Positions 6,001 through 45,969 of a DNA stretch of 64,000 bases are shown one piece after another (the stretch's first letter is position 1; each line of letters begins with the position of its first letter). The stretch covers positions 49,724,001 to 49,788,000 of the forward strand of contig OX597814.1 of the NCBI GenBank assembly GCA_951406725.2, given 5' to 3'. Both the position numbers and the translations under genes were made by a program. The notes under the pieces were generated by a model, which did no database searches, was not told where the DNA came from, and worked only from the letters and a program-made list of their open reading frames with translations. The DNA is from Octopus vulgaris. Taxonomy: Eukaryota.

Positions 6001-6400
6001 TTGTTTTATCAGTTTCAGCTCAAAGCTGTGGCCATACTGAGGCACCGCCGTTTTGCTACACTTTTATTCTTGAGAGCCTCCTCTGATATGTGGCATTTGG
6101 TGAATAAGAGAGTTTGACGTCGCTACCCTCATTTGCGCTTCATGCCGCGAGGTAGTTTCATCTGGGACTCACGACAGGAAGAGATCCAGTTTTGATTTGA
6201 AAACACCTATATCTACTTTGTCTAGGTCTCTCAGGCTCTTTGGAAGAATATTAAAAAGTTGTGGGGCCCTGAAACCTAGGCTGTTGCAGTAACTGGTCCT
6301 GAAGCGCGACGGCATTGCTGGGATCTTTGGCACTGCGCAGGGGCGACTCATTCTGGCATTTGTGTAGCTTTCAATGCCAAAATTTGGCATAATCTCTTCC
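6001..6400 (-). mobile_element. 5'-truncated 3' fragment of the same CR1-type LINE family
   Basis: Colinear with 8290-8680: VPKIPAMPSRF.TSYCNSLGF..PQ..NILPK and the same 3' tail. Confidence 0.85.
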
Positions 6401-6405
6401 ATATA

Positions 6406-7789
6406 TAATAGCGAGCAAAAAAAAAAAAGACAACGATTCATATTTTTTAAAAATTCGGAAAAGCCAGTAAACGTACAAATTCTTAATTGGTTTCGTAAAT
6501 ACGGTTAACCAATAGTTAAAGTCTGAAAAATCTAAGTTTGTACAATGGTCTTAATAAAGGTTAATAGCACTAAAACTAATTTCATCCAAATGTCTCTTGT
6601 GCAAAAGAAGAGAACAATCAAACCAAAAACTGCTTCAATTATCTCAAAACCATATAATAATGATTGAAAGAAAAGTAAATATGAACTTAATACAGTTAGT
6701 ATGATGTTTGTAGACCTTTGTTGGAGACCACCTCAGCACATCGATTGCCACAGGAGATAACAAGTTCCCTGCACAAGTCAGGTGTTACTTTCTTCCATTC
6801 CTCTTCTAATATCTCCCATAAATTCGTTGTAGTAGTTGGTGCCGTTTGTGTTACTCTGTCTCCAAGTATCTTCCAAAAGTTTTCTATTGGATTAAGTCTG
6901 GACTTTATGCTGGCCACTTCATTACTTGGATATTTTGTTCACTAAATAATCCAGTGATAGGCCTTGCAGTATGAGAAGAGGAGTTATCTTGCATGAAAAT
7001 GCACGGTTGATTCAGAAATGTTCGTAATGATGGGATCACATGCTGTTTAACCAAATTCAAATAGATATTAGCATTAAAAGTCCCTTTAATCTGCACTAGA
7101 GGGCCAACTCCTTCAGAAGAAATCATTCCCCACACCATGACGCTTCCTCCTCTAAACTTGGCAGATTTCTTCAGGCACTTGGATTTTAGCCGATCTTCTG
7201 CGAAGTGCCTAACATACCGTCTACCAACTGAACCTACTAAATTGAATTTGCTTTCATCGCTAAAATGAACTTTTGACCAGTTTTCCTCCCTCCATTTCAC
7301 CTGAGCTTCTGCAAACGAAAGCCTTTCCAATTTGTTCTTCTTGCTGATGGTCGGTTTCGTTGCCGGAGAACAAGTCTTTAATCCATTATTTACTTTTATT
7401 TTCTTAGAAATTCTTACCGCAGTCTCGAAAGTATCCTTCAATACGTACCGTTTCATGACTCCATTATCTTGCATGGTGGTTTTGCGTGGTCTACCAGTTG
7501 CCTTTTTTTGTTCAAATCCTTTAGTTTTTCATAGAGCTTAAGAACATGTGAAACTACACAATAAGATCTCCTTACGTCTCGTGAAATACCGAGAGAGTCA
7601 TTCCTGAAACTTACATCTTGACAATTTCTTTTCGGAGATCGAGAGTAAATTCAGCATGGTGTGCCATATTCGGAAGCTAGCACAATACCGAGACGGTAGT
7701 AAGGTTGAGCTTGCAAATGTAAACAATGTTTGAAATTTCCAGAAATTTCTGAAGGTAACTAATCGTCCCCTTTTTTTTGCTCGCTACTG
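6406..7789 (-). mobile_element. Tc1-family DNA transposon with a frameshifted transposase, both TIRs and TA flanks
   Basis: Motifs WSKVHFSDESKFNL, GGSVMVWG, FMQDNSSSH, WPA..LNPIENFW. TIR (C/T)A(G/A)TAGCGAGCAAAAAAA at 6406 and inverted ending 7789, each next to TA. Confidence 0.9.
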
Positions 7790-7799
7790 TATATATTAA

Positions 7800-7907
7800 A
7801 GTTAGATAAGGCCGCTTTATGGGATTACCTTAGGTTTCATGTCCATAAAGGGCTAAACTTTATGGACGTGAAACCTAAGATAATCCCATAAACCTGCCTT
7901 ATCTAAC
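7800..7907. repeat. ~108-bp near-perfect palindrome
   Basis: AGTTAGATAAGGC..TTTATGGGATTA.CTTAGGTTTCA.GTCCATAAAG, loop GGCTAAA, then the reverse complement. Confidence 0.9.
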
Positions 7908-7929
7908 TATACATACATACATACATACA

Positions 7930-8019
<90 letters not shown>

Positions 8020-8280
8020 GACATACATATATGTGTATATATGTGGGGCGCGCGTAGAAACTCTACGAGCCACATGGTCTGAAAATTCTTATATTTGTTC
8101 GTATATATATCCTCACACACATGAACTTAAAAATGTCTCTCTATCATACATACATGGTTACACGCATATAGATATGCATATATATCTATATATTATATCG
8201 CCTCGGTTTTCGAACAACTCTGATCACGAACAAATCGTGCTTTATATATATAAAGTTCGATCAGGTACTACTGTAAATAT

Positions 8281-11200
8281 TTTATATTTTATGTTTTACC
8301 AGTTTCAGCTCAAAGCTGTGGCCATGCTGGGGCACTGCTGTTTTGCTACATTATTATTACTTAGAGCCTCCACTCATATGTGGCATTTGGGGAATAACGA
8401 AGTTTGATGTCGTTACCCTCATTTGTACCTCCTACCGCAAGATAGATTCATCTAGGAAAGAGATCCAGTTTAGATTTGAAAACACCTAAATCCACTTTGT
8501 GTAGGTTCCGCAGTCATTTTGGGAGAATATTAAGAGGCTGTGGGTCCTTGAAACCCAGGCTGTTGCAGTAACTAGTAATGAAGCGCGACGGCATTGCTGG
8601 GATCTTTGGCACTGTGGAGTGGCGACCCATTCTGGCATTTGTGTAGTTTTCAATGCTAATATTTGCCACAATCTTTTCCAGGATCTTCCAGATGTATATT
8701 ACTGCATATCTCTCCCACCTTCGCTGCAGGGTGTAGTGTGTTAGCTGCTTCAGCCTTTCCCAGTAGCTGAGCTGTTGCAATGAGACGATCTTTATGAAAC
8801 TTCGCTGATTTGCATCAAGGTCCGCTGTTAATTTTACACTGTGGGGTGACCATAGCTGGGAGCAGTAGTCCAGGCATCTGAGGATGAATGTCCCCCAGAA
8901 GACTAACGTGGTTTCCTTCTCTCTGGTTCTGAAGGTTCTCAGGATCCATCAACCAGCGTCTGCACTTTGTTGCCATCTTGGTAATGTGCACTTGGAAAGA
9001 GGTGTCATTACTCATGTCGATACCAAGGTCCCGCACTGACTTAGGTTCTGGGATTGTAATCCCCTGTGGGCCAGTGTACCCTGTAAGTTTAACATTTAGT
9101 TTTGGGCGCTGTTAGCGTAGGATTTGGAAATTTCCACCATTAAACTGCATGTTATTATCCTTAGCCCATCTGTAAATTGCGTCCAACTCCTGCTGCAAGT
9201 GTGCAATATCGCTAGGGTTTTGTAATTTCTGCGAGACTTTCGTATCGTCTGCATTGCCAGCTAGGGGGGCTATCCGGGCAGCTGAGGGCATATCTGAGAA
9301 GGCCACTATGAAAAGCAGTGGTCTCAAGAAATTCCATGTGGAACACCACTGACTATTTGTGTTACCTTTGAGGTGGCTTCATTGGCCACCACTGCCTGAC
9401 TTCTATCTTTCAAAAAGTAATGTAACCACTCTCCAATTTTCCAGCAATTCCGAGATCACGCGATCCACTTTATCAAAAGTCCACATTTGAGTTGTTGAGT
9501 AACTGCCTCAACATCCAGTCATAGAGCTGTAGGAGCAGGGTCAGTCAGCTCCTACCCGGTCGAAAACTATGCTGGGTATCACTCAGCAAGCCATTTGCAA
9601 GAAAACTCTGGAAGAGAGTCTGTAGTGGTTTCGGCAGGGCACGCTTATACGATTTGAGGAGGATTACTGGGAAACCATCAGGGCCAGCAGTTGTGTTTGC
9701 GCCCACCTCATCTATGGCTAGTCTTATATCTTCTTCACCAATGTTGATGTAATCCACCGTAACTGCCTCGCTGGTTATAGTTGAGGCGGCAAAGAAATCA
9801 ATCCACTGGTTCGTTCACTTGTCTGTGTTCCAACGGGGTGGTAAAAGTACTTTTGAACTGGTCGTTCAGAACCTCATGGATCCTGGTTGAGTTATCTGTG
9901 AGGAGGCTTTGGGGTTTGACTCGATATTTTTTATAACCCAAGTGTCTTTGTCTGCTCTCTCCCTCACATAGGATTGTTGTAGGCTTTTTTCAGTCTCCAT
10001 TAGTGTTGTTTTTAGGTGGGACCTTTCACTACTTTTGGTTGGTTGAAGCGATTTGCAACCTTCACCCGTCGTCTCATGAGGATCTTCCTCTCTCTTGGAA
10101 TCTTGTTCGTTTTGTGTTGGCCTTGTGCTCTGGCATATGGTTTGCATAACAGACATGAAATATTCTAGTTTCATGCCAATATCTGTTGTGGAGAGACATT
10201 TCGGTCTGTCCTGTCTGAGGATCTCTTTTTGGATCGATTTCCAGTCTGCTTCGTGGAAGTTCAGACTGGAGAGATTTTGAGTGCTTCCTTTAGGCTGTAT
10301 GTCTCTGGCTAATTTTGGTCCATACATAGTTCTATTATATTGGGATCCTAAACTAATGTCTTCGTCACTTTCACATTATGATCGATGTCCATATTGTGTG
10401 TAAAGCAGAGATCCAAAAATGTTATTCACCCTAATCGGTCTGAGCACATCTTGTTCTATGAATAGGGCTTTAGTGAGGTTGAGCAGGGACTTGTACTTGT
10501 TTGCAATGAGTTATTCCTGAGAGCAAGAAGCCTTCGGGTCATTTGACATTGGGGAAGTTGAAATCACCTATAAGAAACACGCACACGTGATATGAGGATG
10601 TCTTTTATTCTTGCGAGGCAATCTTCAAACTTGCCTATGTGGTTTGGAGCAGCTGGTGGGCGATATGTATTGCATATGACTATATTGCGTTGCCTTATAT
10701 ATACAACTTGTGTCATATACTGAATAATTTGAGTATGACAGTAGGACTTGGGGTGTGAGGTCCTCACGGATGTATACAGGAACTCCACAGTGGCCTTCTT
10801 TTTATTTCTGTTTGTTCGTAGTGTGGTATATTTTGGAACGTGTACTTCTGCATCCTCTATATCAGGACTCAGATGAGTTTCCACGAGTGCTATGCATAGG
10901 GCTTGATTGCATGCAGCAAGGTCTCTCAGAAAAAAAAATTGCATTTGTTGTTGTGATGCAACAGGCCTCCAATATTTAGTAAAAATATTGGTGTGACAAC
11001 TGTGCAGGCTTTAGGGGAGGCCATCTCGTGCCTGTTGATTGTGGTGGTCTTGCGCCGTGGTGGATAAGGTTCCGTGCTTGCGCTTGATGTAGCCAGGTCA
11101 GCTGCTGCACAATCTTTTGCGCCATGCACAAAAAGACTCTTGCTCAGCTACTACCTTGTGCATAATATCTGAAGCGCGCACTGCATTTGCATACTTTCTC

Positions 11201-38689: not shown

Positions 38690-39239
38690 GTTACCAGGAA
38701 CAGTAGACAAGCTGCTAAAATAAGTCCGACATGTGGGCATATAGTTCATAAAGCAGATCATCCAATCCTGGTGATTTACGCCCCATGCAGGGGCCCAGTA
38801 CATCTTCCACTTCCTCCACTGAAATCAGCTTCTCGCAGCACTCGATATCCTTGTCCGATAGGCGCGGCATACCTTCGAGGTAAGCGTCAAAGCCCTCTGT
38901 GTTAAGAATACCACTCCTGGAAAAGAGGTCGGCGAAATGTTGCCGAACCATTGAGCTAATCTGTTTGGAATCGGAGTGCACATGACCACTGCGGCCCGTC
39001 ACAGAGCGAATCTTAGATTTGTTTCCATGCTGTACCTCCGCTACACAGGCCCAACCAAAGGCTTTTGAGCTTTCGTGTTTCAAGGCACGCTCTCTAGCTC
39101 GGATAATACAATCTTCATATTTTACGTCGAAGAAATGGTCGAGTGCCATTCTCGCCGGTAGCGCGTCAGTTGCAATCCCACTTTTATGTGCCTCTTCTAA
39201 GTTACTAATTAGTTTATTTTCTGTTCTACCCTTATTTTG
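38690..39239 (-). pseudogene. Tx1/L1-like LINE ORF2 fragment (pre-RT region)
   Basis: ORF 38715-39251 includes IIRARER and GRKSPGLDDLLYELY (cf. KSPGxDGLPxEFY). Confidence 0.7.
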
Positions 39240-39900
39240 AGGGTGCGGCATGTTTCGCCTTTGTATAACCTACCACAGCTGCATGGGATGGAGTACGCAC
39301 AATAGAAGAGAATATGACCAAAAACTGCGTGTACTCCATCCCATGTAGCTGTGGTAGGTTATACAAAGGTGAAACATGCCGCCCCCTCAAAATAAGGATA
39401 GACGAACATCGCAAAGCTGTGACAAGAGGAGATATTGATAAATCGGGTATAGCTGATCATGCATGGAAAAATGGAGACCATATCGCCGTGTGGGATGAAG
39501 TTAAAATAATAGACAGAGAACACCACTGGAAAATACAAAAACTAAAAGAAGCAGCACATATGCTAGAACACAACAACCTCCTAAATGGACTGAGTGCAGA
39601 TATGAATAGCATATGGGAACCGGTATTAAGGAAGGATAGAAAAATATTAGATTTATAAACCCTAAAATTCACTCCATAATTACGCACGGGCATATGGCGT
39701 AGTGGTTAAGAGCGCGGGCTACTAACCTCAAGTGAATAATAATAATAATAATAATAAACATCGAAAAATACCTTAGGAATGTGAACCCAGGTTCGAAATT
39801 TCCCCAAGATGGGGAAGAAGGCTGGAGGGCATATTAGCCAAAACGTTGTGTTAACAACAAACAAGATGAGGACAAATATCCATCGAATGTAAATAATAAA
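39240..39900 (+). mobile_element. 5'-truncated Penelope-like element: GIY-YIG endonuclease end plus terminal region with tRNA-like head and damaged hammerhead
   Basis: ORF 39314-39658: CVYSIPCSCGRLYKGET.RPLKIRIDEH...KLKEAAHM (GIY-YIG). 60-bp fold-back at the 5' junction. Confidence 0.85.
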
Positions 39901-39904
39901 CTTA

Positions 39905-40390
39905 CACTATTGCCTACAAACTTTTGAGATTTAGGAGTTACGTCTGTATTTTCTACCCCACTTTTCGTTTTTGAGGGCCGCTTGGCTGATTTTGTCTCAT
40001 CTGGGGCTCCTTCTATATCCAAGAAGTTGGTAGGATTTTTTATGGCCTTATTGCCTTTCTGTTCCAGTGTTTGGCGTTGTGGTTGCCCCTGCTTTCCTCT
40101 TTGGGATTGCAATGGAATATTGGAACACTTCTCTCGACTTCTCCACAGTGGGGCAGAAAGCTTTTAAGTGGTCGGTTCTCCCACAGATGTAATACCTGGG
40201 TTTCCTACCCTCCACAACCACCCGCATCAGGGGTAGCATGAACTTCTTTCCAAAGCAACCAAAACCTGGAACTGTTTTGTTGGGGGCTTGATCGTAAGCT
40301 TATTACCTTCTCGTGCTCCTCTAGCATGACCTATGAGGAAGTACGTCCCATGTATAAAGGGAGCATCACGTACTAGTCAGAGAAGCAGGT
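39905..40390 (-). pseudogene. LINE ORF1 (gag-like) fragment with a degenerate CCHC knuckle
   Basis: VVVEGRKPRYYICGRTDHLKAFCP (ORF 40048-40239). Confidence 0.6.
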
Positions 40391-40444
40391 CATTGTTCTC
40401 ATTCCTAAGGTCTTCTTCTTCTTCTTCTTCTTCTTCTTCTTCTT

Positions 40445-40475
<31 letters not shown>

Positions 40476-40487
40476 TTATTATTATTC

Positions 40488-40563
<76 letters not shown>

Positions 40564-40565
40564 CA

Positions 40566-40608
<43 letters not shown>

Positions 40609-40640
40609 CATTCTTCTTCTTCTTCTTATTATTATTATTA

Positions 40641-40705
40641 TCACTGCCTGGAATTGAACTAGGATTCTTGGGGTTAGTAGCTTGCGCTCTTAACCACTAT
40701 GCCTT
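40641..40705 (-). promoter_or_regulatory. tRNA-like Pol III internal promoter (A and B boxes) inside the Penelope terminal region
   Basis: Minus strand: GGCATAGTGGTTAAGAGCGC...CCTAGTTCAATTCCAGG. The copy at 39695-39732 reads TGGCGTAGTGGTTAAGAGCGCGGGCTACTAACC but has lost the B box. Confidence 0.6.
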
Positions 40706-40793
40706 TGGGCAATTATGGAGTGAATTTTAGGGCTTATAAATCTAATATTTTCCTATCTTTAGGAATGAGAACCCAGGTTCGAAATTTCCCCAA

Positions 40794-40839
40794 GACACCT
40801 GATGAAGGCTGGAGAGTATATCAGCCGAAACGTTGTGTT
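40794..40839 (+). ncRNA. Minimal type I hammerhead ribozyme (Penelope-associated)
   Basis: Stem I GACAC/GUGUU. Core CUGAUGA plus an extra A. Stem II GGCUG/CAGCC. GAAA, palindromic ACGU in place of stem-loop III, GUU cleavage triplet (predicted cut after 40834). Confidence 0.75.
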
Positions 40840-41665
40840 AACAACTAACAAGATGAGGACAAATTTCCGTCAAATGTAAATAATGTACATAATTCCTCAT
40901 CTCTTAAATATAGAACTGTATTTTCTAAATTATCGTTCTCTTTTTGGTGGAAACCCTTTCCTCTTCTGGAGAGCCATGATGCCAGGTCGAACGATATATT
41001 TCTGACATTTTTTAACTGCCTCCGCTTTCCCTTGCAAAGAATGAATGGTCCACGTATTTATTATATTTGCGAAGGAAATTCTTTCCTTCGGATATGTATT
41101 CTCGTTATTGTCTTCGTAAATAGCATTACTGTTGTTACTGTTGTAGAAGTCAGCGCTTTTGTTGGTGCCTATACTGCTGCTGATGGTTATAATATCGTTG
41201 TTGTTGCTGTTGGAGTTGTCACGGGTCATGCTGGCGTTATGGTGGTCTTGTTTTGGCTGTTGGCGATTTTGTTGTGGATGATGGTAATGGTGGAATTGGT
41301 ATTGGTGGTGGTGTTATTGTCTGTAGGTTCTTTGCAAAAGTCAAAGGGAGTGGCGACCGATACGCTTGGTTGACTACTATGCTTCGAGTCGATTAAAACC
41401 GAGGAAACAGTTACATTTTCTCTTACATCCACTCCTCTGTTTAGACAAGTGCTGGCCATGTTGTGAAAAGGGTTAAATTGAAAAATATACCCGAGAAAGT
41501 TTTCGGAAGGGGTTTTCCACCCGTTTCTTGATTGAAATGGGATGAAACTCTTTCTAAAGATACTTGGATACATCCGTCAAGCCATAATTACAATTTCAGC
41601 GGCCGAAAACAGCAAAAGAGGAAAGTCACTAGCGATGATTCGAACATGGATTCCGGGTGTGAAGC

Positions 41666-41840: not shown

Positions 41841-42378
41841 GCCCTGATGCAGTTCCAGGCAGTGGCTCCCATGGTTTTTGATCTTAACTGATTGAAAGTG
41901 TTATCATGTACATTGTTTTGCCTTGGAATAAAAGATGGGCTACAGCAAATATTCTGCTCAATACCAAAGATTTGATTGTCAGTTATATGACCTTAAACCA
42001 GTTGAGTATGTTCCTTAGTGACTGACAATACGTGCATCTCTGATCATAAGCAGCAGTAGTGGGGGAGCATCATAGCCATGTGTTGAGAGAATTATTTGGG
42101 ATTTGGAAACATGGGTGTTTTGTTTAACATCCTTAAACAAACCTTATTCAGGGACCATTTAAGCGAGATGGGCACTCAACCTGAAGAAAATTCTACTTGG
42201 GCCCCACCTGCAAGGTCATGCGCTGTTTATCTTGATATGAGATCACCATGTCGCGCACATATAGTTGTGATGCATGTGCCTGGTGTACCCTTATCAGATG
42301 GATAGTCATGATGGGTACACTGGGCTTCGTATATTTTACCCCAGTGTCACTTTGATGGCATGCACTGTTCTCACAGTC
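41841..42378 (+). mobile_element. ~540-bp non-coding repeat flanked on both sides by TAA tracts (non-autonomous TAA-targeting element or LINE UTR), copy 2
   Basis: Begins GCCCTGATGCAG and ends GCATGCACTG..CTCAC.TC. Colinear with 15268-15821. Confidence 0.75.
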
Positions 42379-42435
<57 letters not shown>

Positions 42436-45400
42436 CAGAACCAGAATACTTCTAACTCTGGACTTGTAGTGACACCACCAAAAACACCACCTAAAGCAAA
42501 ACGTATAAAATGGACCAGAGAGGACTATAGAGATGTGTTGAAAGCTTTTTATACAGCCCAACTAAACCCAAATAGTAACCTCAGTGTACAAACATACATC
42601 TCATGGAGAAATTCAGTAGGCAATGACGTACGTAGATATATAGACGCAAATAAATTAAGTAATGTACGCAGAGATATAATTAAAAACAAAAGACTAACTG
42701 ACGCTGAAATTGACAAAATTAGGACACTGATAGCTCATGGTAGACCAAAAGAAAACAGCAACAATGTAGACGAAATAGGTAACAGTAGCACAGAAGCCAG
42801 TGTACAAGTGGCAAATCAACTTCCCAATGGGGAAGTTAAACAAAGAATAGCGAAGACGAGAGATTTGAAAAAAGAGGAGAACGTAGACCTTCCTCAAGAA
42901 AACCAAAATAGATATGACATAGAATTTGAGGTGAATAATAGAGAAAAGATTATGGAAGCAAAAGTGGACATTATGAGAGAACTCGGCAAGATTGAGCTCA
43001 CTGACATGGTTAATAGAGAACCACTACCAAAGTTTTCAAATGGCACAAGAAATAACAACACAATCATGACATATAACGTTGCCCTAGGACAGATCTTAAG
43101 AAATAAGGGGAATGATTTGACAACCTTAAATAATCTCATTTATTCCACTGCTAAAGTAGTAACTACCCAACTAGGTATTAAGATGACAAAGAAAAAGGCC
43201 AGGCATGTCAATGAACCTCCTAAGTGGAAAGTAGCGATACAAAAAGAGATTGAATCTCTGCGGGCGGATGTTTCAGTTCTCGATGAGCTTGCTAGAGGAG
43301 TGAATATTAAGCCTAGAAAAGCTAGAAAAATCAAGCAAAAATATAAAATCAAAGATCTCATAAACCCCCCTGCAACTAAGGAACTGTTGAAACAACGGAT
43401 ACAGTTGAAAGCTCAACGGCTTAGAAGGTATGACAAAAGAAACAAATTTTATCGACAAAATAAATTTTTTAAGACAGATGCAAAGAAATTTTATAGGGAA
43501 ATTGGCAAAAATAAAATACACATAGAAGATCCACCTAAGATTGAGGAAGTGGAGGAGTTCTGGAAGAAGGTATGGAGCAACGAAAAAGAGTTTAATGCTG
43601 AGGCTGACTGGATAGAACGTGAGAAAGAGAGACTGGATGAACTTGAAGAACAGAAATGGGAAGCAATAGGAATAGAGGAGCTAAGGTGTGTCCTTAGGAA
43701 GGCTCATAAATGGAAAACCCCAGGACTGGATCGGACCCCTAACTTCTGGCTGAATTGTTTGACAGAGGTACACGAACATCTCGCTGCATCTCTGTCTGAT
43801 GTCATTCAGAACCCAGAGCAAATACCTGCTTGGCTGACTGAAGGAACCACCTACCTATTACCTAAAACCGAAGACACAAAAAACCCAAAGAATTACCGGC
43901 CAATAACATGTCTCAACACCACCTACAAAATCCTCACATCCATAATAACGGAGAGAATGTACGCTTTCCTTGAACAAAATTCTATCCTTCCACAAGCTCA
44001 AAAAGGTTGTAAAAGAAACTCTTATGGGTGCAAAGACCAATTGCTCATAAACAAAATGATTGTAGAGAATTGCCGGAGCAAAAACAAAAACCTGAGTATG
44101 GCATGGATAGACTACAGGAAAACGTATGACAGTGTCCCACATAAATGGATACTCAAGGCCCTTGAGATATACAAGATCTCTCCTGTCGTCTCAAAATTCT
44201 TAGAGAATAGCATGACCATGTGGAACACACGTCTCTTTCTAAGCCATAGTAATGGGATGAGCCAGTCCAACAGCATCAACATCAAACGAGGCATCTTTCA
44301 AGGTGACTCCCTCTCTCCATTACTTTTTTGCATGGCACTGATCCCACTCTCAAACGAATTGGATAGTACTAGATATGGGTACAAAGTTTTTAGTAAATTA
44401 ATAAACCATCTTTTCTATATGGACGACCTAAAGCTGTTTGCCAGGAATGACCAAGAGCTAGAAGGGCTGCTAACAACTGTTAAAGAATTTAGCAATGATA
44501 TCGGAATGGATTTTGGCCTTGATAAGTGTGCTAAAGCAACTTTTGTAAGAGGCAAGCTCAGGCAAACAGCTTCTGTTAAATTAGATATTGACACTACCAT
44601 CAAGGAACTTGACCCACAGGAAAGTTACAAATACCTAGGAATCAACGAAGGAGATGGTATACATCATGCTACTATGAAGGAAAAAATAAGAAAGGAATAC
44701 TATAGGAGAATAAGGCTTGTACTGAAGACTGAACTCAACTCCAAAAATTGCATTGAGGCCATTAACACCCTGGCACTTCCAGTAGTCCAGTACAGTTTTA
44801 ATATCATTAACTGGAACCTTACGGAACTCCAACGCTTAGACAGGAAGACAAGAAAGTTACTGACATCCAAGAGCATGCACCACCCTAAGGCAGATGTAGA
44901 CCGCTTGTACCTACCTAGAAGCAGCGGGGGGAGAGGAATGATGCAATTAGAGCTGTGCTATAAGACCTCTACTGTAGGAATGAACAGGTACCTATCTAGT
45001 ACAAAGGACTGGATGCTGCGACTTGTGCGCGAACACGAAAGTAACAAAAAGCTGCATTCTATTGTCAAGGAAGCTTATAAGTTCGAAAGGGAACTAGACA
45101 TTAACCTTGAATCAGATGAAGAGCCGGAAACCACTGCTACCAAGCAAGCAAAGCGAATCAAGCAGACTGCAAAAAAGAACGGGCAGAATCAAATTGAGAG
45201 GCGGTGGAGCCAGAAGCCCCTGCATGGACAATATATTCTCCGAAGCCAAAATGCTGATGTAGACCAAGCAACAACCCATCAGTGGCTGAAGAGCTCTGGA
45301 TTGAAAGCAGAGACTGAAGGTTTCATAATGGCAGCACAAGATCAAAGCTTGTTTACCAGAAATTACCAGGCTAACGTTCTCCGAAACGGTACTGACCCTA

Positions 45401-45969
45401 AATGCAGATTCTGCGACACATTTGACGAAACGATAGACTATCTCGTTTCGGGATGTCCTGTGCTGACACCAAACGAATACAAAAATCGCCACGATAGGGT
45501 AGGACAGTATATACATTGGAAGATATGTAAACACTACAAATCCGACACTCCTGCTAACTGGTATGAACACCATCCTCAGCCAGTTGTTGAAGGTAAAGAT
45601 GTCACCATCCTCTGGGATTTTCCAGTCAACACTGACAGAACGATCAAGGCTAATCGACCAGACATAATTGTTAAAGACAGGGAAGAAAATACCTGCAGAC
45701 TAATAGAAGTAAGCGTCCCCACTGATAAAAATGTATCTTTCAAGGAATTTGACAAACTTAGTAAATATAAGGACCTGGAAATCGAAATACAGAGGATGTG
45801 GAATCTTAAAACAAAAACTGTTCCTGTTATTGTAGGTGCCCTAGGTATGATAAAAAAGGGATGTCAGAAACACCTAGACAATATCCCTGGAAAACCATGT
45901 CTCAAGGAAATCCAAAAGATTGTGCTAACAAGTACTGCCCACATCCTTAGAAAAACCCTATCAATGTAA
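42274..45969 (+). CDS. Single ORF of an R4/Dong-clade non-LTR retrotransposon: N-terminal basic region, reverse transcriptase, CCHC-type zinc knuckle, PD-(D/E)xK restriction-like endonuclease
   Basis: Uninterrupted 1231-aa ORF. RT motifs: KNYRPITCL, WIDYRKTYDSVPH, GIFQGDSLSPLLF, HLFYMDDLKLF (YMDD at 44416-44427), YKYLG. C-terminus: CRFC-x8-(Y)-x4-C, RHD, RPDII..LIEVSVP..K..KYKDL, PVIVGALG. No APE domain. The first ~54 codons come from an upstream repeat plus the TAA tract, so the true start is uncertain. Confidence 0.93.

Follow-up and report, generated by a model that had tools for sequence, protein, structure and literature searches.

A tRNA-Arg-like head in the terminal repeat of an octopus Penelope/Poseidon-type element marks the likely start of its RNA and is a candidate internal Pol III promoter

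The anole element PAc and the Penelope/Poseidon Penelope-like elements (PLEs) resemble the octopus element analysed here in joining a reverse transcriptase (RT) to a C-terminal GIY-YIG endonuclease and in carrying a partial-tandem terminal repeat, the pLTR (PMC4209133, PMC11167929, PMC8557442). As far as the available text of these reports goes, they likewise form inverted truncated arms with an optional tail at ATT-rich targets, use uncut RNA as the insertion template and bear a minimal hammerhead with an extra base, a palindromic helix III and an ORF start that overlaps the ribozyme. For the anole element the available text describes internal priming by its own RT in vitro, an ATT preference of the endonuclease, two reverse-transcription start sites typical of these elements, and a ribozyme that overlaps the ORF, is protein-assisted and, like Penelope hammerheads at large, is dispensable for insertion in vitro; no RNA ends at the cut are recorded there in vivo (PMC11167929). 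In Drosophila, the pLTR of Penelope contains an internal promoter that lacks a TATA box (PMC2377424). The Schistosoma repeats Sm-alpha and Sj-alpha share with the octopus module a type I hammerhead downstream of a Pol III-type promoter, at high copy number (PMC6765202, PMC2770079), and the TRIMp3 elements Cassandra, Helenus and Ajax likewise keep a Pol III promoter derived from a small RNA in their terminal repeat; for their autonomous partners, it was argued, Pol II is obligatory and such repeats are not to be expected (PMC10886601). Metazoan non-LTR retrozymes are also short hammerhead-bearing derivatives of PLE repeats (PMC7229834, bioRxiv 10.64898/2026.07.22.740005). Pairs of tRNA-derived SINEs and LINEs have in common with the octopus element a tRNA head, a 3' end derived from the partner and copies that start at this head. 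It is assumed that an autonomous retrotransposon depends on Pol II, or on a Pol I co-transcript, and to our knowledge Pol III promoters occur only in non-coding passengers. OR SINEs are of tRNA-Arg origin. OR2 is an octopus SINE of the OR type (PMC4758252).

The window, a 64,000-nucleotide stretch of Octopus vulgaris DNA, holds two copies of an element that appears to be of Penelope/Poseidon type, the clade name following from motif likeness and a match to Anolis proteins. Copy 1 opens with a short inverted arm on the minus strand (39225-39296), recognised by sequence comparison and its hairpin as a fold-back of the ORF end; the hairpin formed by this fold-back (39265-39362) gives weak miRNA-like scores in Rfam. 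On the plus strand follow the 3' end of the Penelope ORF with its GIY-YIG endonuclease (39300-39658, stop codon 39656-39658; ESM Atlas, 0.95-0.96), a piece on which Pfam itself found no match, a tRNA-Arg-like head (39688-39732) with an A box at 39695-39705 and a deleted 3' half, an (AAT)n tract (39736-39756), and a linker with the hammerhead module (39757-39897), which has a short 3' end without tail. From 39688 to 39897 the order is correct, yet the B box was lost with the 3' half of the head and the catalytic core of the hammerhead is broken. Copy 2 is a 5'-inverted arm (40760 to 40395) joined head-to-head, with a short overlap, to a direct arm (40759-40918). Along the minus strand the inverted arm comprises the last ORF codons, the stop and a 30-nt spacer (40707-40760), a tRNA-Arg-like head (40641-40706) with an intact B box (40660-40650) and a damaged A box (40703-40694; 7 nt lost, T8 among them), an expanded (AAT)/(GAT)/(GAA) tract (40419-40640) and a linker remnant that stops short of the hammerhead (40395-40418). 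The direct arm, on the plus strand, contains an ATG (40765-40767) that is in frame with the element ORF when the repeat lies 5' of the body, an intact minimal type I hammerhead (40794-40839) of the anatomy given in PMC4209133, with a predicted cut after 40834, 70 nt 3' of the ATG, and the rest of the terminal repeat (40840-40918), with two preferred 3' ends and a tail of ~28 nt made of the first bases running on into the element body.

An earlier note on this DNA had described a tRNA-like Pol III promoter, a TAA tract and a hammerhead in one module. The motifs it named are where it put them, the hammerhead at 40794-40839 (plus strand) with the cut between 40834 and 40835, the A box at 39695 (plus strand) and the word GGTTCGAAAT at 40776 and 39790. 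Its order of stop, head, tract and hammerhead holds for the family (25/29 other GIY-anchored loci in line, read by hand from a search whose query itself held part of the head) and fails in copy 2, which is inverted. The A and B boxes it saw are present, but those of copy 2, like the TAA/GAA tract, lie on the minus strand and face away from the hammerhead, and its second B box departs from the GTTCRANNC consensus at the last C in both subfamilies. A head-to-hammerhead RNA can thus be made from neither window copy. Both copies seemingly lie inside a broken LINE-like element of greater age, which runs on the minus strand (38715-39269 and 39900-40390), a host recognised by motif impression and without a Pfam match. 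Further along the window, at 42271-45969 (plus strand), an unrelated and possibly young LINE has an intact 1,232-aa frame (RVT_1, E 8e-30) with a TAA tract 5' of it, and served as a control for T runs.

Genome-wide, the element reads ORF stop, tRNA-Arg-like head, (AAT)n, start codon, minimal hammerhead and tail. All 32 RT-anchored copies that reach the stop, collected with a query without any head sequence, enter the head (32/32), and subfamily B has it too; the proposal that the head belongs to the terminal repeat of an autonomous Penelope is thus borne out, and the note's own reservation, a separate SINE inserted in a minority of copies, does not apply. Upstream of the module lie a Penelope-type RT (RVT_1, E 1e-9) and, by ESM Atlas, the GIY-YIG domain; we found 138 homologues of 509-2000 aa, and identity to Anolis proteins is ~40%. 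None of the family's copies seen has an intact full ORF; the longest open frames are <650 aa and contain stops. The repeat sits directly upstream in 46/52 body starts, as a partial-tandem pLTR, and in 84/99 divergent inverted pairs one tail is long and the other short, which together is textbook PLE anatomy, as laid out in PMC8557442. In subfamily B the head occupies the same place, is ~80% identical to that of subfamily A and is followed by an A/C-rich linker instead of the microsatellite. Contigs from runs labelled as three other organisms also contain the head and the hammerhead. Exact k-mers for the hammerhead 5' half, the head and the spacer just upstream of the head occur 7,194, 4,291 and 863 times in the genome; corrected by sampled match rates of 19/66, 36/118 and 18/48, they correspond to roughly ~25,000, ~14,000 and ~2,300 arms. 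The bulk of the copies are single or inverted and uncut, and head-to-tail tandems occur only in a small derivative of 285 nt (the hammerhead module plus the first 123 nt of the body, no head). This derivative is a retrozyme-like offshoot, repeated head-to-tail at five loci with differing flanks (L581, L582, L583, L587 and L597 (contig C29), ~1300-2030 in each). A similar mini-element at L606 begins at head +1 and keeps the head in both repeats. L455, L460 and many other places carry a Penelope-like family that belongs to another clade and is young, with many intact 781-aa frames; in the six copies shown, the 760 nt 3' of the endonuclease contain neither a minimal hammerhead nor a tRNA call.

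Among 30 sampled tRNA loci of six amino-acid types the head best matches Arg-TCG and Arg-TCT, and the head of subfamily B is nearer to tRNA-Arg than that of A. The two heads have 13 fixed differences over 75 positions, zero of which break the A- or B-box consensus (weak, P ~0.08 by hand). The head no longer folds as a tRNA, its acceptor and T stems being unpaired, and ARAGORN and Rfam called neither head nor hammerhead. Rough tRNA-like candidates number 656,489 in the genome, and one locus (L096:138-2854) has seven tRNA calls, mostly Cys, inside 3 kb. With respect to SINE2 features, a tRNA-derived head with A and B boxes is present and copies begin at it; a separate SINE lineage with a head-less partner was not found, and the autonomous copies themselves bear the head. 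The element works like a SINE yet is not classed as one. The head itself likely originated by SINE insertion.

The 5' ends of most copies lie at the edge of the head, as expected of a Pol III start, giving the SINE-like population that had been foreseen. Of 85 copies reaching +3, 64 stop at −8 to +3 relative to tRNA +1, compared with 5.5% expected from the end rate inside the head. Three samples agree on this edge (25/36, 22/30 and 17/19), drawn by a hammerhead pattern, hammerhead BLAST and a mid-head pattern and not chosen for 5' extent; 124 unique heads were scored. We excluded matches below 80% identity, matches at locus edges, subfamily B loci and any locus whose anchor was the ORF end or the head start; a segmental duplicate (L293/L294, ~108 kb apart on C1, ~96% identical over kilobases) entered twice among the long copies. 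These ends cover 12 nt and peak at −7 and at 0, the −7 peak being in part a snap-back artefact. The flanks of head-start copies are mutually unrelated, which argues that the RNA began at the head edge and not in common host sequence, and since Penelope RT primes inside the RNA, according to PMC11167929, the far end of a copy marks the transcription start. The head-less family C has no such pile, its ends being spread over 4-573 with a small cluster at 49-51 (7/79). Among body-linked 5' repeats that reach the head edge, 4/8 start there, which fits long transcripts from the head; an initial impression that the 5' repeats of full-length copies run through the head (0/3 stop) was dropped when more copies gave 4/8. 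Head-start and long copies are of equal age (6.1% vs 6.3%), and a comparison between them (84 vs 40 copies) gave a few nominal P values of 0.01-0.05, under biased sampling, but no strong diagnostic site, so they probably derive from the same masters. There is also a mild excess of 5' starts at 91-99 (11/23, P 0.018), which bears indirectly on self-cleavage, as do the variation at N7 and the deletion hotspot described below. We consider it likely that the RNA starts at the head, a conclusion firmer than which polymerase makes that RNA.

The hammerhead at 40794-40839 has a helix I of 5 bp, an extra A, a helix II of 5-6 bp and a palindromic ACGU for helix III, whose self-duplex is worth −5.7 kcal/mol; the core, the extra base before helix II, G10.1-C11.1 and the palindromic 15.2-16.2 are those of a minimal type I ribozyme. 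A descriptor of it gives 6,839 genome matches against 25 for the reversed control, far from chance. The sole polymorphic core position is the free N7 (T49/A21/C1), which is T, A or C by species. The ends of 272 arms cluster at module positions 140-154 (118) or 170-173 (128), corresponding to the two reverse-transcription start sites typical of these elements (PMC11167929) and not to the ribozyme cut; merely 3/272 arms end near the predicted cut, contrary to the ribozyme-defined end that had been suggested. Nor is the core better conserved than its flanks (4.0% vs 4.6% non-CpG change among inserted copies), a comparison that is uninformative, since no gap is expected of dead copies. The first ATG of the ORF lies in the linker 5' of the hammerhead, and one natural copy (L576) keeps an open frame from there across the hammerhead and into the conserved N-terminal domain. 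The homologue P0008 (52% RT identity) has, at residues 15-45, the same peptide as L602 and L576 over the hammerhead and just beyond, which suggests that the overlap of ribozyme and ORF is old in the clade; several other homologues begin ~47 residues later, where this family has no Met. In three raw RNA runs of ~12 million reads each, all unstranded, 6,225-9,019 reads fell on the element, both directions equal, and 69-72% of them continue into unlike sequence; no discrete RNA and no piles of starts or ends were found in these runs, and the best-supported joints listed include no circular back-joint at the cut. These reads reflect copies within host transcripts and speak neither for nor against Pol III use or cutting. 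At least four other minimal-hammerhead families with differing, pairing helices II are present (L302-L313, L314-L403, L534-L563, with further places at L039:2985, L086:469 and L126:120), and a second descriptor gives 3,517 matches against 374 for its control. One of the hammerhead families, family D, lies downstream of a Penelope ORF and is head-less.

Three features had escaped the earlier note: the start codon 5' of the hammerhead, a body free of T4 and a deletion hotspot at the cut. Over 2,434 nt of body no T4 is common to even 20% of copies. On two real scaffolds, T4 occurs at 0.44 per kb in the natural copies mapped there and at 2.02 per kb after shuffling, and the open frames have 6 T4 vs 31.8 by codon shuffle. 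As head-less controls, eight Penelope-like ORF pieces, most of them from a different Penelope-like clade, contain 19 T4 in 5,550 nt; against them the deficit has a Poisson P of 2e-4 and, conditional on T3, a P of 0.035-0.065. The other LINE of the window has 12 T4 in 3,529 nt, and head-less family D has T4 and T5 common to its copies. A foreign-protein search for a head-less family of the same clade gave 30 loci, all of family A, so that the ORF controls come from other clades and from 950 nt of family D. G4 is absent from the body, but it is absent from the controls as well, and within the 255-nt module alone the absence of T4 is not significant (62% of shuffles). As this is a single lineage and a post hoc test to which subfamily B adds little independence, the apparent depletion of terminators is suggestive only.

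A single 3-nt deletion over the predicted cut is present in 37/319 arms (hotspot 40832-40836), and 52/315 arms have some deletion of at least 2 nt there, compared with 15/3,054 (0.5%) at 13 matched microhomology sites, two of which were protected by the anchor pattern in part of the sample. The odds at the cut are 27-fold those at matched sites and 7-fold those at a longer repeat 8 nt away. The 3-nt deletion occurs in subfamilies A and B and on all alleles, and is the main deletion in the RNA reads (10-13%) and in relatives' contigs. Fourteen of 19 affected arm pairs are discordant for it, although the arms share subfamily alleles (N7 is concordant in 66/70 pairs); five pairs share it (P 0.014), so part of the deletion load may be inherited. 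Slippage initiated by CpG decay was rejected as its cause (TG state 8/37 vs 52/236), and no trend with divergence was seen (13/90, 15/90, 16/91; low power). In family C, without microhomology at the cut, the deletion is rare (~2/78, read by eye). Family D varies in length at the cut within a local repeat; its top matches (2/30 shortened) over-represent undeleted copies and were kept out of the counts.

We favour, at somewhat better than an even chance, a reading in which the head of the Penelope/Poseidon terminal repeat, where most copies begin, is an internal Pol III promoter. The ancestor would have carried the tRNA-Arg-like head between the ORF stop and the hammerhead. Pol III would start ~6 nt before tRNA +1 and transcribe the tract, the ATG and the hammerhead; when it starts in a 5' repeat, it may then continue through the terminator-free ORF. 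The element RT would prime inside the RNA ~125 or 150 nt 3' of the ATG and run to the RNA 5' end, leaving the hammerhead mostly uncut in the template and yielding ~330-nt copies of head, hammerhead and tail, often as inverted pairs: a SINE built into an autonomous element. The terminal repeat would in this way have given about 10^4 SINE-like copies, perhaps element mRNA too. Cutting by the hammerhead, protein- or dimer-assisted, would separate the start codon from the ORF, and an RT jumping the cut by 2-3-nt microhomology would leave an in-frame 3-nt deletion. The endonuclease, given the ATT preference described in PMC11167929, may target the (AAT)n tract of its own element. The tract may also serve as a cap-independent leader, for which A/C-rich viral leaders are a parallel.

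Protein-coding RNA is normally made by Pol II, and the RNA could start at the head by internal, initiator-type Pol II transcription or by RNase P processing of a longer RNA, with the boxes as relics. We think this unlikely: the internal TATA-less promoter of the Penelope pLTR (PMC2377424) fits the former and the peak at position 0 (12/124 ends) the latter, but many ends that are not snap-backs lie at −2 to −7, past the RNase P site, the unpaired stems and the rejection by ARAGORN speak against a processed tRNA, and both the box consensus retained in A and B and the T-run depletion would be left unexplained. The pile-up might instead reflect RT stalling or snap-back at the head edge on longer RNAs, with the head as a passenger. 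A 5-bp palindrome at the boundary folds at −5.4 kcal/mol, 21 of the 64 head-edge ends are snap-backs on it, and the same fold-back junction recurs in RNA reads and a relative's contigs; against this, the remaining 43 ends continue into other arms or flanks, no comparable stop occurs at helix II (−6.7 kcal/mol) and the T4-free body has no explanation, so that we hold this account to be quite improbable. That an independent tRNA-Arg SINE, head plus AAT tail, once inserted in an ancestral Penelope and that head-start copies are largely this SINE or recombinants at AAT tracts is very improbable. The genome is SINE-rich and no hammerhead follows the tract in 9/30 head copies read by hand and 8/28 head-anchored copies, but in most head copies it does follow, the tail arrangement of the inverted pairs is Penelope insertion anatomy, subfamily B carries the head without a TAA microsatellite, and neither a common alternative body nor a separate lineage was found. 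Initiation by Pol III at the head remains our preferred reading.

The deletion hotspot bears on a larger and more tentative proposal, possible but doubtful in our estimation: the whole 2.8-kb mRNA would be made by Pol III from the captured tRNA promoter, with terminators purged and uncapped translation from the A/C-rich leader, the hammerhead acting as an off-switch between start codon and ORF and the 3-nt scars recording cutting in vivo. Joining the first two bases of the 3' product to the same two bases three places upstream would give exactly the deletion observed. The deletion could also be a DNA slippage hotspot, or stem from a small number of master copies favoured by selection, since a dead ribozyme would spare the mRNA, an account to which we give a substantial chance, if short of an even one. 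It draws on the need for microhomology and the rarity of the deletion in family C, on the local repeat at the variable cut site of family D, on the preserved frame and on the five concordant arm pairs. The excess over matched sites and over the longer repeat nearby, the missing link to CpG decay and the discordance of most arm pairs count against it, and its selection version still implies ribozyme cutting. In either case the hotspot is a countable genomic read-out, testable in any genome and in the existing in vitro system.

Each part of the octopus module has precedent, in PLE hammerheads, Sm-alpha, TRIMp3 elements and retrozymes as PLE derivatives. The literature search, in the text that it covered, returned no autonomous PLE with a tRNA-derived promoter and no cut-site deletions; it extended to papers, and Repbase or Dfam could already describe the family. 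A Penelope family whose RNA begins at a tRNA head makes the boundary between element and SINE less sharp, offers a route to the origin of Sm-alpha-like and retrozyme repeats, and may explain part of the unclassified octopus SINEs reported in PMC13282606. Compared with described PLEs, the tRNA-derived candidate promoter sets this element apart: tRNA goes unmentioned in the available text of PMC11167929 and PMC2377424 and the term occurs once in that of PMC8557442. The Penelope promoter that has been characterised is Pol II-like, and the available portions of these reports describe no cut-site deletion. Sm-alpha and Sj-alpha, as reported in the available text, are non-autonomous tandem repeats with canonical hammerheads that free monomers, whereas the octopus module lies in a coding element, has a minimal hammerhead and is dispersed as uncut inverted pairs. 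Retrozymes are defined in the available accounts as tandem arrays giving circles, unlike the bulk of the octopus copies, and the available part of the retrozyme preprint (bioRxiv 10.64898/2026.07.22.740005) does not mention tRNA, Pol III or a promoter. In SINE/LINE pairs the partner is a LINE, whereas here it is a PLE that itself bears the head, with no CORE or other body. The TRIMp3 elements, as far as their description is available, are non-autonomous LTR elements, while the octopus element is a coding PLE with pLTRs and tails; contrary to the argument made for TRIMp3, it is the autonomous element itself that carries the head.
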